24,000 bases of DNA from Legionella sp. W05-934-2 (GTDB lineage Bacteria; Pseudomonadota; Gammaproteobacteria; Legionellales; Legionellaceae), in contig NZ_CAXMZT010000004.1 in the NCBI RefSeq assembly GCF_964199965.1, forward strand, positions 198,213-222,212. The letters are read 5' to 3'. Within the stretch, counting starts at the first letter, position 1. Every line of letters begins with the position of its first letter. Shown piece by piece: positions 16,069 through 18,416 of the stretch. Made by a program: the position numbers and the translations under genes. A model generated the notes under the pieces. That model saw only the letters and a list, made by a program, of their open reading frames with translations, did not search any database and was not told the DNA's origin.

Positions 16069-16097
16069 TTGTCCAACACAAATCGTTTTGCTAATGT
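16069..16097 (+). promoter_or_regulatory. Predicted sigma70 promoter with extended -10 (TTGTCC, 17 nt, TGcTAATGT)
   Basis: -35 at 16069-16074. TG at 16089-16090. -10 at 16092-16097. No + strand gene lies upstream. The next elements are the ribozyme and the recombinase genes. Confidence 0.5.
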
Positions 16098-16105
16098 AAT
16101 ATTAA

Positions 16106-16158
16106 GCATAACTGACGAGACCGGTGCGATTCCGGCGAAACCTTAACAGGTCTTATGC
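16106..16158 (+). ncRNA. Type I hammerhead self-cleaving ribozyme motif (HHR-A)
   Basis: The RNA reads GCAUAA CUGACGA G(A)CCGG-UGCGAUU-CCGGC GAA ACCU-UAAC-AGGU C|UUAUGC. All invariant core nucleotides are in canonical order, with three supporting stems. Predicted cleavage is after C16152. Confidence 0.8.
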
Positions 16159-16161
16159 AAT

Positions 16162-16208
16162 AGCCACTCTCATTCTCTAATCTTGTGGCAGAACGATAAG
16201 TCGAGAAC
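16162..16208 (+). ncRNA. Conserved hairpin/pseudoknot leader A, following HHR-A
   Basis: 43/47 identical to 18370-18416. P1 is GCCAC (16163-16167) with GUGGC (16185-16189). Loop UUCUC (16173-16177) is complementary to GAGAA (16203-16207). Confidence 0.6.
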
Positions 16209-16532
16209 AAAACACCATCTGTACTTCGCAGAACCTATTGCAATAAAAGCAATGCAATTCTTTGAGAATTGAACCTAACAATACCATTTCTGTATTGCTC
16301 ATGCGCAACCATGGCTCGTATAGGCTTTGTTGTATTTAAAACATTAAAACCTAAGGAGGTCACCACCCTAAAACAAAGAAGTAGCATGTAATCAGGTCAA
16401 TGTAAGTTTGAAGTTTAAAACTGATTTGCCCCTGAACTGAGCCTTGAGGCTATATGCCTGGTACTGCAACCTTGCAGGCCGCTCTACCAACACTAAACAA
16501 ATACCAGGGCAAATAGTTTTAGAGGTTTATAG

Positions 16533-17336
16533 ATGAGAAAAAATCAGCTCAGACAACAAGTAGATCATTATTGTTATCATGATCACACCGGTTCATTCCG
16601 TGCTAAAAAGCACCGACATTTTGTATTACACAAAATGATTCGTGATTTATATCATATTGGGCATGTTCCCCCAAAATGGCATGGGGTTACTCATGATCAT
16701 ATTATGCAACTTGTTGGACATTGGCAAAAAGAGCAGATCAAGCCCAAAACCATCATGAAGTATATGACCATCATTCGTAGATTTTTTCAGAGCATTGACC
16801 ATACAATCCCTGACATTAGTAATCAACATTTGAGAATTAAAAGCGCTAATCTTCGCGCCAAGACAATCCACCTTCCAAATAATAGTTTTGAAACGATAAA
16901 AAATCCTATTGCAAAAATATTGCTCGAATTCCAAATTTATTTTGGATTAACGCTCAGCGAAGCAATGCGTCTAAATCCTGCCATTCATATCCAGGAAAAT
17001 TCACTTTGGATTACAAGAGACATTGCCACAAACAGCCATGACCGGAGGATTCCTGTTAGAAATGATATGCAAGCTGAAATAAATAACTCACTTCAAAAAC
17101 TATGCAAAGAGCAAAGTTTGATTTTAACTTATGGGTATCATTCTGTACGAGGTGCGTACAGTCATGAAATGAAAAAAATAGGTCTCCCATCATCAAAGAG
17201 CTACCGCTGTTTTTATGCCAAGAATATGTATCCAAAACTGAGTCAAGTCTTATCCCCTTACTTGGCTAAACAAACCATCATGCGTGAAATGGGGCTACAA
17301 TCCAGACGCACGTTGTGGAGTTATCTGCATGAGTAA
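16533..17336 (+). CDS. Tyrosine-recombinase paralog with degenerate active site (likely non-catalytic partner)
   Basis: 267 aa. AGAGG SD. Colinear with the downstream recombinase, but GLTLSE replaces GLRREE (Arg I lost) and MGLQSRRTLWSYL replaces LGHSRLSITRIY (His lost, Tyr kept). HSVRG keeps HxxR. Confidence 0.7.
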   Translation: MRKNQLRQQVDHYCYHDHTGSFRAKKHRHFVLHKMIRDLYHIGHVPPKWHGVTHDHIMQLVGHWQKEQIKPKTIMKYMTIIRRFFQSIDHTIPDISNQHLRIKSANLRAKTIHLPNNSFETIKNPIAKILLEFQIYFGLTLSEAMRLNPAIHIQENSLWITRDIATNSHDRRIPVRNDMQAEINNSLQKLCKEQSLILTYGYHSVRGAYSHEMKKIGLPSSKSYRCFYAKNMYPKLSQVLSPYLAKQTIMREMGLQSRRTLWSYLHE

Positions 17337-18228
17337 TACAAAATTGCGTTCGGCAAAATTTTCAATCAACGAATTGGTTAAAAAAGCATATGGCCATTCC
17401 TATGCCAGCCAATCAGACATGCGTCATATGCTCTTTCGATGTGTGAAAGATTTACATGAGCTTGGCTATAAAATTGGCCATATAAAAGGATTAAAAGCAA
17501 AACATATCTACGTGCTCATAGATCACTGGAAATCTGAAGGAAAAAACCCAGGAACAATTAAAAACTACATGGCCAAACTACGCAAAGCAGCCTGTCTGTT
17601 GGATAATCCCAAACTTATTAAGCCAGAAAATAGTGCATACAACATCAGCCAACGCTCTTATGTATCCTCAATCAACAAGGCGATTCATCATATTGATTTA
17701 AATAAGTGCACCGATCCTTACATTAGATTATCCCTTGAAGGCCAAATGCTCTTTGGCTTAAGGCGTGAAGAATCCATGAAATTCACACTAAGCGAAGCAC
17801 ACCATGAAGATAGCTTGATCATTAAACCCAGTTGGACAAAAGGAGGTATAGGCAGAACATTAAACATCACAAATGAAGCACAACGTCAATGGTTAACGAA
17901 GGTTTCTCAGTTAGTTCGTACAGGAGAATCTCTCATCCCATCAAATAGGACCTATAAGCAGCACTTAAGTCAGTATGAAGAGCAAGCTAAATCTATGGGA
18001 GTTAGTAAATTGCATGGATTAAGACATGCCTACGCCCAGAAACGATATAGAGAACTCACTAAATTATTTGATCCACAAAGCCAAGGAATGCCATGTCCAT
18101 TTGAAGGTGGAAAAAAATTCAACGCCATGAATCCAATAGAAAAAGCCATAGATAGAAAGGCACGTCAAATGATTAGCCTCGAATTAGGGCACTCTCGCCT
18201 GTCGATCACAAGGATCTATTGCGGCTGA
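17329..18228 (+). CDS. Small tyrosine recombinase (phage-integrase family) with a full catalytic set
   Basis: 299 aa from ATG 17329 (8-nt overlap with the upstream gene; this start aligns with the paralog N-terminus). Arg I in FGLRREES. Lys in WTKGG. HGLRHAYA (HxxR). LGHSRLSITRIY (His and Tyr nucleophile). Confidence 0.8.
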   Translation: MSNTKLRSAKFSINELVKKAYGHSYASQSDMRHMLFRCVKDLHELGYKIGHIKGLKAKHIYVLIDHWKSEGKNPGTIKNYMAKLRKAACLLDNPKLIKPENSAYNISQRSYVSSINKAIHHIDLNKCTDPYIRLSLEGQMLFGLRREESMKFTLSEAHHEDSLIIKPSWTKGGIGRTLNITNEAQRQWLTKVSQLVRTGESLIPSNRTYKQHLSQYEEQAKSMGVSKLHGLRHAYAQKRYRELTKLFDPQSQGMPCPFEGGKKFNAMNPIEKAIDRKARQMISLELGHSRLSITRIYCG

Positions 18229-18282
18229 AAATCAATCAAAACGTGTTTTAAATTTAAAAATAAAACACGTTTTGATTGATTT
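18229..18282. repeat. Perfect 22-bp inverted repeat with 10-nt spacer, directly after the recombinase stop codon
   Basis: AAATCAATCAAAACGTGTTTTA (18229-18250), AATTTAAAAA, TAAAACACGTTTTGATTGATTT (18261-18282). Read directly. Confidence 0.9.
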
Positions 18283-18285
18283 GCT

Positions 18286-18294
18286 TGTTATAAT
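18286..18294 (+). promoter_or_regulatory. Predicted extended -10 promoter element (TGtTATAAT)
   Basis: TG at 18286-18287 and consensus TATAAT at 18289-18294. No good -35. Lies ~24 nt upstream of HHR-B. Confidence 0.5.
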
Positions 18295-18317
18295 AGTTTA
18301 GAGTACTAGGTATATAA

Positions 18318-18366
18318 CACAACTGAAGAGCCAGTGAGAGTCTGGCGAAACCCAATTGGTCTTGTG
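18318..18366 (+). ncRNA. Type I hammerhead self-cleaving ribozyme motif (HHR-B)
   Basis: The RNA reads CACAA CUGAAGA GCCAG-UGAGAGU-CUGGC GAA ACC-CAAUU-GGU C|UUGUG. The core is complete and the stems differ from HHR-A by compensatory changes. Predicted cleavage is after C18361. Confidence 0.8.
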
Positions 18367-18369
18367 AAA

Positions 18370-18416
18370 AGCCACTATCATTCCCTAATCTTGTGGCAGA
18401 ACGTTAAGTCGGGAAC
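18370..18416 (+). ncRNA. Conserved hairpin/pseudoknot leader B, following HHR-B
   Basis: P1 is 18371-18375 with 18393-18397. Loop UUCCC (18381-18385) is complementary to GGGAA (18411-18415). The U-A pair of copy A is replaced here by C-G. Confidence 0.6.

Follow-up and report, generated by a model that had tools for sequence, protein, structure and literature searches.

A pair of recombinase genes lying between two copies of a predicted self-cleaving RNA raises the question of what this RNA does and to which genes it belongs. We analyzed such a locus in a 24,000-nucleotide (nt) stretch of DNA from Legionella sp. W05-934-2 (assembly GCF_964199965.1, contig NZ_CAXMZT010000004.1, positions 198,213 to 222,212), which in its entirety is referred to here as the window. 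This DNA belongs to a conjugative element of the genomic-island type (MPF_G) of Legionella, in which two predicted hammerhead ribozymes, HHR-A and HHR-B, precede two operons, one with the tyrosine-recombinase genes rec1 and rec2 and one with a small open reading frame (ORF) and ardA. The initial annotation of this DNA had described a ribozyme-bracketed recombinase cassette and, as a minimal reading, two adjacent transcription units with a common ribozyme-processed leader. All eleven elements that it listed were found at or near their assigned positions on reading the sequence, and our comparative data agree with its minimal reading. Both operons are headed by a predicted sigma-70-type extended -10 promoter, a type I hammerhead, and a hairpin-pseudoknot leader of ~50 nt; judging from sequence, we think it probable that together these form a cassette that changes the 5' end of the mRNA. 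The features of the two operons, in window coordinates, are as follows.

16069-16097, + strand: promoter A (predicted), with -35 TTGTCC at 16069-16074, a 17-nt spacer, and extended -10 TGcTAATGT at 16089-16097
16106-16158, + strand: HHR-A, type I hammerhead, 101.5 bits with our own covariance model R1
16159-16208, + strand: leader A, homologous to the 5' part of the Rfam motif RAGATH-32
16209-16419, + strand: middle part of the rec untranslated region (UTR), with hairpins each followed by GAACCUA and a weak match (14 bits) to the 3' part of RAGATH-32 at 16185-16278
16420-16514, + strand: RAGATH-13 RNA (RF02688), 83.7 bits, above the gathering score of 80
16533-17336, + strand: rec1, catalytically degenerate tyrosine-recombinase paralogue of 267 amino acids with Phage_int_SAM_2 only
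17329-18228, + strand: rec2, predicted active tyrosine recombinase of 299 amino acids with Phage_int_SAM_2 and Integrase_1 (E = 1.4e-8)
18229-18282, + strand: hairpin with perfect 22-base-pair (bp) arms (18229-18250 and 18261-18282) directly after the rec2 stop codon, folding z -9.3
18286-18294, + strand: promoter B (predicted), extended -10 TGtTATAAT lacking a good -35, from which transcription should start at ~18301, ~16 nt before stem I
18318-18366, + strand: HHR-B, type I hammerhead, 112.2 bits with R1
18367-18417, + strand: leader B, matching the 5' part of RAGATH-32
18562-19392, + strand: second operon, with the small ORF (18562-18822, 86 amino acids) and ArdA (18868-19392, Pfam E = 3e-45)

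The ribozyme and leader form a conserved, strand-specific RNA

In HHR-A, stem I pairs GCAUAA with UUAUGC (16106-16111 with 16153-16158), stem II carries a one-base bulge, stem III pairs ACC with GGU, and the core reads CUGACGA...GAAA. Cleavage is predicted directly after C17 at position 16152, with U16153 as the new 5' end. HHR-B has the stem I CACAA/UUGUG and a C17 at 18361, again with cleavage predicted directly after it, and the distance of 2209 nt that had been given for the fragment between the two predicted sites (16153-18361) was correct. Both ends of each ribozyme exit via stem I, which gives a type I topology. The two modules can be aligned over ~105 nt, and their differences in stems I and II are compensatory.

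We retrieved 80 Legionellaceae loci by alignment of rec2 homologues, built a ribozyme-leader alignment from 58 sequences, and analyzed covariation on 57 distinct modules. The hammerhead core motifs CUGAnGA, GAAAC, and GUC showed no variation in any of the 58 aligned modules, both window copies included, so that all 13 core positions were invariant. In the 57 distinct modules, 96.5% of helix cells were paired, compared with ~40% in slid-partner controls, and 17 of 25 pairs displayed double compensatory changes; these fell on five pairs of stem I, four of stem II, and three of stem III, with the leader hairpin within the same range of three to five. None of 500 shuffles matched the paired fraction, the number of covarying pairs, or the covariation score, and 4 of 500 matched the count of further pair types. 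One stem II pair contained 13 U-G cells, which are compatible with the + strand only. The covariance model R1, made from the 58-sequence alignment, found 124 full-length copies in 83 related sequences at 47 to 112 bits, and every one of these matches (124/124) was on the gene strand. These findings establish that the ribozyme-leader cassette is conserved as an RNA, that it is specific to one strand, that its hammerhead core is intact, and that its helices covary.

The cassette is coupled to two operons

A ribozyme-leader module preceded rec1 in every one of the 72 loci for which 1 kilobase (kb) or more of upstream sequence was present (72/72). This module ended 235 to 356 nt before the rec1 ATG in 63 loci and 614 to 771 nt before it in the other 9; in the loci L001 and L002, the extra upstream space holds a small ORF. 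The position of the second module was far more variable, at 52 to 148 nt after rec2 in 21 loci, 589 to 1948 nt in 12, and 2103 to 5494 nt in 16, and no second module occurred within at least 3 kb of rec2 in 17 loci. It abutted rec2 in only 21 of ~66 loci, and it was followed by a small ORF and then by ssb and/or ardA. Wherever ssb or ardA lay downstream of rec2, a module stood directly upstream of that operon, without exception.

The cassette is therefore coupled one-to-one with the rec1-rec2 operon and with the ssb/ardA operon, and the conserved unit consists of promoter, hammerhead, RAGATH-32-type leader, RAGATH-13, rec1, and rec2. Because the spacing between modules varies, the window does not hold a bracketed recombinase cassette, as had been suggested. 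It holds two operons with the same ribozyme head that happen to abut here, the upstream module being tied to rec1-rec2 (72/72) and the downstream module to the ssb/ardA operon.

The leader extends RAGATH-32 by a hairpin and a pseudoknot

Both window copies have the same type of leader, a GCCAC/GUGGC hairpin whose loop UUCYC is able to pair with a downstream GRGAA. In leader A, the hairpin pairs GCCAC (16163-16167) with GUGGC (16185-16189), and the pseudoknot pairs UUCUC (16173-16177) with GAGAA (16203-16207). The corresponding elements of leader B are the hairpin 18371-18375 with 18393-18397 and the pseudoknot UUCCC (18381-18385) with GGGAA (18411-18415). This leader pattern matched twice in the window against an expectation of 0, and it follows stem I after a gap of 4 to 5 nt in the window and of 3 to 6 nt across the 124 copies. 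The pseudoknot varies little, with CCC/GGG in 64 modules and CUC/GAG in 7 from at least two lineages. Its other changes were pyrimidine changes that yield G-U pairs, and no G-to-A change occurred without the matching C-to-U change. The pseudoknot hence behaves as a helix, and a further covarying pair joins the Y of UAAYC to the R of GRACG.

RAGATH-13 and RAGATH-32, from the Breaker laboratory, are orphan motifs defined by proximity to twister or hammerhead ribozyme-associated genes. The leaders matched the 5' consensus of RAGATH-32 (RF02922), GUGGCUGGACGUuuAGUCGGGAA, at 23.3 and 14.1 bits in the window, below the gathering score of 41.8 bits. At the homologous position in L063, L022, L055, L034, and L048, RAGATH-32 scored 45 to 98 bits. 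Since these related loci exceed the threshold at the same position, we regard the window leaders as divergent homologues of the RAGATH-32 5' part. The Rfam model has its start within the 3' arm of the leader hairpin, leaves out both this hairpin and the pseudoknot, and runs on into further 3' hairpins, so that the leader described here adds both elements on its 5' side.

Starting from the RNA, we scanned metagenomes for the leader pattern and recovered 31 true low-GC modules, which had the same two operon contexts wherever the contig was long enough downstream. Matches outside Legionella-like DNA, ten in high-GC metagenome sequences and one viral, had no shared structure and were rejected as chance. 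One metagenome contig, L124, carries diverging ribozyme-leader modules at 788-887 (- strand) and 3160-3262 (+ strand), each followed by RAGATH-13, with no recognizable rec1 in the ~500 nt present on either side.

Promoter spacing and the predicted change of mRNA 5' ends

The -10 hexamer of promoter A ends 14 nt before CUGA, and the predicted start at ~16104-16105 lies 1 to 2 nt before stem I. A simple -35/-10 scanner did not list this promoter. Among distinct upstream (rec-operon) modules, 56 of 70 had TGnTAnnnT ending exactly 14 nt before CUGA, and the 70% consensus of the upstream modules contained a conserved TTG at -35, ~17 nt upstream of the -10 hexamer. Because this extended -10 sits at a fixed 14 nt and transcription would begin ~7 nt after it, the ribozyme of the rec-operon copies is predicted to start at ~+1. 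Among the downstream modules, TAnnnT ended 13 nt before CUGA in 22 of 47 distinct copies, 16 of these with the TG extension.

The 22-bp hairpin between rec2 and promoter B is restricted to the clade of the window, and a long AT-rich hairpin stays with module B where that module lies 880 to 1451 nt from rec2 (L005, ~7700-7780; L011, ~8270-8350). Since the hairpin travels with module B, it belongs to the promoter region of the ssb/ardA operon and is not simply a rec2 terminator.

Considering these features together, we propose the following sequence of events for the cassette. In the rec-operon copies, transcription would start at the first base of stem I, so the ribozyme would be the first ~50 nt of the RNA and would cut itself off as a ~50-nt fragment. 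The remaining mRNA would lose its 5'-triphosphate, gain a 5'-OH, and begin with UUAUGC or UUGUG a few bases before the pseudoknot, and its 5' end would be fixed regardless of upstream transcription. Where no terminator separates rec2 from the second cassette, rec transcripts that read through would also be trimmed by the second ribozyme and left with a 2',3'-cyclic phosphate. RppH and RNase E act through a 5'-monophosphate, and a 5'-OH end should for this reason resist their decay pathway.

A natural point of comparison is RiboJ, a synthetic insulator in which the sTRSV hammerhead is joined to a 23-nt hairpin and which standardizes 5' ends (Clifton et al. 2018, PMC6206723). In Escherichia coli, RiboJ raised protein 2- to 10-fold and transcript ~2-fold (PMC6206723). 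Like RiboJ, the Legionella cassettes place a promoter, a predicted self-cleaving hammerhead, and a structured element at the new 5' end before the ribosome-binding site. RiboJ is engineered and shares no descent with them; unlike its hairpin, the natural leader contains a conserved pseudoknot whose loop bases do not vary, and 150 to 300 nt of additional structured UTR follow it. By analogy with RiboJ, the 5'-OH, pseudoknot-headed end may raise or stabilize expression.

Several observations weigh against this proposal. The Rfam hammerhead models did not reach their gathering scores in the window, which are database score criteria and not biochemical ones (HH9, 24.4 of 52 bits for HHR-B; Hammerhead_1, 17.1 of 34 bits for HHR-A; RAGATH-1-hammerhead, 17.4 of 56.3 bits), and they were likewise all below threshold in ten related loci. 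Stem I is only 5 to 6 bp long. A mutual-information scan found no tertiary contact between stem I and loop II, loop II having conserved positions but no covarying partner. With a short stem I and no such contact detected, fast cleavage at physiological Mg2+ is not assured. In L014, the upstream hammerhead (4776-4880), which scores 100 bits and lies outside the 58-module alignment, has U in place of core C3 (UUGAUGA) and may be a weakened or inactive copy. The -10 of window module B lies 28 nt from CUGA instead of 13 to 14 nt, which limits the placement of the ribozyme at +1 to the rec-operon copies. The predicted transcription starts were deduced from promoter geometry, and the idea that a 5'-OH stabilizes mRNA in Legionella is extrapolated from E. 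coli. The single-sequence folding energies of the ribozymes were also no better than those of shuffled sequences (z -0.5 and 0.0), and z-scores for the leaders were equally uninformative. Given these subthreshold Rfam scores and shuffle-like energies, the case for the ribozymes stands on comparative and not on thermodynamic evidence.

Other roles for the ribozymes and leaders

The ribozymes might instead serve mainly to cut one long read-through transcript of the transfer or early region into operon-length mRNAs, with closeness to a promoter being secondary, as proposed for other bacterial hammerheads in the passages of Perreault et al. (2011, PLoS Comput Biol, PMC3088659) that we compared. 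Those passages report such processing for three bacterial clusters, and many of our bracket-type loci (such as L001, L017, L034, and L072) have no convincing terminator in the 52 to 115 nt between the rec2 stop and the second module. The fixed promoter spacing in 56 of 70 distinct upstream modules argues against processing as the main role, as do the extended -10 of window module B itself and the -10 elements found 13 nt before CUGA among the downstream modules. Furthermore, the gene before HHR-A (Abi/DUF3644) is on the opposite strand, and nothing therefore reads into HHR-A. We consider processing unlikely to be the chief function of the cassette; it overlaps with a change of mRNA 5' ends and does not exclude it.

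A second possibility is that the leader is not an mRNA feature and acts as a 3' domain that stabilizes the active fold of a hammerhead with a short stem I. The leader followed stem I by 3 to 6 nt in 124 of 124 copies and was never seen without the ribozyme, loop II has conserved positions, and many hammerheads are stabilized by pseudoknots according to the compared passages of Perreault et al. (PMC3088659). We nevertheless find this explanation doubtful and rate it as decidedly unlikely, considering that no covariation was detected between the leader and either loop II or stem I and that RAGATH-32 extends past the leader into 3' hairpins that cannot belong to the ribozyme.

The initial annotation had also raised the idea of a circular recombinase RNA, in which both ribozymes cut to free the 2209-nt RNA with the two recombinase genes and an RtcB-type ligase closes it; closure could also come from reversal of the hammerhead reaction. 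The end chemistry would be suitable, and in the L001-type clade a chimeric stem I would form because both ribozymes there have an identical stem I (CACAA/UUGUG). In most loci the chimeric stem I fared worse than the native stems of 5 to 6 pairs: in 29 of 44 it kept 4 of 6 pairs around a central C-A mismatch, and a further 5 loci had 3 of 6. The compared passages of Perreault et al. (PMC3088659) report no circular or spliced products from a search of comparable clusters. The modules abut in only 21 of ~66 loci; over all loci their distance ranges from 52 to >5000 nt, or a second member is absent, and in the window a strong hairpin and an independent promoter separate the two units. Across the loci we did not find the marks of a ribozyme-delimited circular RNA, namely matching ribozyme halves and a conserved unit without an internal promoter or terminator, and we judge circularization to be very improbable.

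Equally hard to credit is a role at the DNA level, in which the structures would serve the transferred strand as single-strand promoters or as sites of priming or recombination, with an incidental likeness to hammerheads: single-strand DNA structures are known in early-transfer regions of other plasmids, the region is rich in early-transfer genes (ssb, ardA, DUF932), and inverted repeats lie nearby, but the 13 core positions are invariant in 58 modules, G-U pairs are tolerated on the + strand only, and every copy sits between promoter and gene on the sense strand.

RAGATH-13 in the rec untranslated region

The 324-nt structured UTR noted in the initial annotation was confirmed at 16209-16532; the RAGATH-13 RNA within it, and the RAGATH-32 5' part in the leader before it, had been overlooked. 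RAGATH-13 ends 18 nt before the rec1 start codon in the window, immediately before the rec1 ribosome-binding site. In related loci it scored 82 to 107 bits, and in 76 of 77 the distance from its end to the rec1 ATG was 19 to 75 nt (19 to 38 nt in 74). The exception was L039, whose rec1 gene matches in two parts; here RAGATH-13 precedes the gene by ~20 nt. From this position, RAGATH-13 would probably act as a translational control element of its own for rec1 and rec2.

The middle of the UTR also contains a Shine-Dalgarno-like AAGGAGG (16353-16359), which was conserved in nearly all of 26 aligned loci, with two a few bases out of register. We rejected an upstream ORF behind it, as the nearest start in the window is an ATG-TAA 27 nt off and none was consistent between loci. 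A pairing of the leader sequence GUUUAGU with the RAGATH-13 strand ACUAAAC was also rejected: it forms 5 of 7 pairs in the window, its variable bases are uncompensated, and on reading the alignment the RAGATH-13 side is altered without a matching change in L021, L024, and L026. With regard to a guide-type role, DNA copies of the RAGATH-13 single strand did not occur elsewhere in the window beyond chance. Several GGA motifs are present in rec UTRs, and one related plasmid encodes a CsrA paralogue (L131, 4695-4868).

A degenerate and a predicted active recombinase

The two recombinase genes overlap by 8 nt in the window and by a few bases in every locus. Rec2 has both the Phage_int_SAM_2 and Integrase_1 domains and a full tyrosine-recombinase catalytic set, with R145/R146, K171, H229, R232, H288, and Y297 invariant across 13 homologues. 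Rec1 has only the N-terminal domain, and its alignment to Rec2 showed the first Arg, the Lys, and the first His of the catalytic set to be replaced. Its last His appears to be replaced as well, as read by eye in the C terminus outside the aligned stretch. We found no characterized close relative of Rec2 among solved structures or in NCBIfam.

Pairing of a degenerate with an active rec gene, together with the RNA elements, was confined to Legionellaceae. Homologues of Rec2 at 25 to 40% identity are present on plasmids of many other genera, several of them adjoining a coupling-protein gene. Six such non-Legionella plasmids that we examined had a single recombinase gene and no hammerhead, leader, or RAGATH RNAs; a weak RNA-element match in one plasmid (L086) lacked the hammerhead core and was discarded. 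Small plasmids of Acinetobacter (L085), Gallibacterium (L086), and Agrobacterium (L083) carry Rec2 homologues of 35 to 40% identity that adjoin T4CP/TraG genes. Among 191 plasmids matching the Rec2 search, 117 were typed as non-mobilizable, meaning that no known relaxase was found. Since homologues adjoin coupling-protein genes on plasmids without a known relaxase, the rec pair might be an unrecognized DNA-processing module of transfer, and proteins of the Rec2 family may process DNA in transfer modules.

Surrounding genes and inverted repeats

Additional features of the region are listed here.

15935-15974, no strand assigned: inverted repeat of 19 bp at 95%, between the Abi gene and promoter A
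16019-16049, no strand assigned: inverted repeat of 14 bp, perfect, shortly before promoter A
19418-20783, - strand: AbiEii toxin and weakly matching AbiEi antitoxin pair, directly after ardA

Genes of the MPF_G type in the surroundings encode DUF2895, DUF3438, TraC, TraU, TraG_N, the coupling protein, and AcaB. The two operons are codirectional and both downstream of the coupling-protein and AcaB genes, with rec1-rec2 first and then the small ORF and ardA; ssb usually belongs to the small-ORF/ardA operon in related elements. An Abi gene lies on the opposite strand before promoter A, and AbiEii follows ardA. The closest genome match was Legionella steelei, whose Rec2 is 99% identical. The order AcaB, Abi, ribozyme-leader, RAGATH-13, rec1, rec2, ribozyme-leader, ssb and DUF932 was common to two Legionella plasmids. 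A 47-kb Legionella plasmid (L131, NZ_CP038274) retains AcaB, Abi, the inverted repeats, rec1-rec2, ssb, and DUF932, and no type IV secretion genes or relaxase are among its annotations. The Rfam abiF RNA scored above threshold (45.8 bits) at 1648-1684 (- strand) of L002, where it adjoins the Abi gene of a Legionella israelensis plasmid, and gave no match beside the DUF3644/Abi gene of the window.

In related loci, a hairpin followed by CAAAAT occupies the position equivalent to the 16019-16049 repeat, and the repeat-region sequence GCTGCGTCACT...AGTGACGCAGC was found again in L002. The two inverted repeats could be a candidate operator or an oriT-type repeat. In many loci (for example, L063, L055, and L024), an inverted repeat CTTGC-N3-GCAAG covers the rec-operon -35, from about -45 to -30 relative to CUGA; the window variant is TTGTCCAACACAA. 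This repeat is likely an operator or repressor site.

Relation to described hammerheads and implications

The initial annotation had known of no bacterial system that combines paired hammerheads with tyrosine recombinases, and this claim of novelty did not hold. The compared passages of Perreault et al. (2011, PMC3088659) describe hundreds of bacterial hammerheads, many of them near integrase genes, and clusters in prophages and mobile elements in which multiple hammerheads lie on either side of one gene or a short block of genes. In these passages, a hammerhead immediately precedes ardA in three Legionella strains, ardA lies within a triple arrangement in Agrobacterium, processing into operon-length mRNAs is proposed, circular or spliced products were sought without success, and three hammerhead clusters were active in vitro, one of them in E. 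coli (PMC3088659). The loci studied here resemble those clusters in having a hammerhead upstream of a Legionella ardA and near integrase-type genes. Unlike the arrangements in those passages, they have a fixed pseudoknot leader, an extended -10 at a 14-nt spacing in the rec-operon copies, and coupling to rec1-rec2 and RAGATH-13. Ribozymes in this kind of setting are thus already described, and the cassette is a well-documented addition to them. Set against the Rfam models and those passages, what appears to be additional is the fixed promoter-ribozyme spacing, the hairpin-pseudoknot 5' extension of RAGATH-32, and the strict one-to-one coupling to the degenerate/active rec pair and the ssb/ardA operon. 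Our literature search returned no paper tying ribozymes to plasmid leading regions.

A broader reading, which we offer as speculation and think rather improbable, is that hammerhead, RAGATH-32, and RAGATH-13 together form an early-expression device of conjugative elements. The first genes needed after transfer (the recombinase pair, SSB, and anti-restriction) would then be translated from ribozyme-started, pseudoknot-headed 5'-OH mRNAs that evade 5'-end-dependent decay or 5'-triphosphate sensing, RAGATH-13 would be a sensor or RNA partner of the rec pair, and the pair itself would perhaps be the DNA-processing module of transfer considered above.

Our analysis reveals no new kind of system. 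It provides gene context and an extended structure for two orphan Rfam motifs, RAGATH-13 and RAGATH-32. Hundreds of hammerheads have been described in bacteria, and the Legionella cassettes offer an unusually clean test case for their biological role, with a fixed promoter distance, a conserved pseudoknot fusion, and exactly two operons. Because of these three features, the hypothesis that such hammerheads change mRNA 5' ends could be tested by a few mutants and end mapping.

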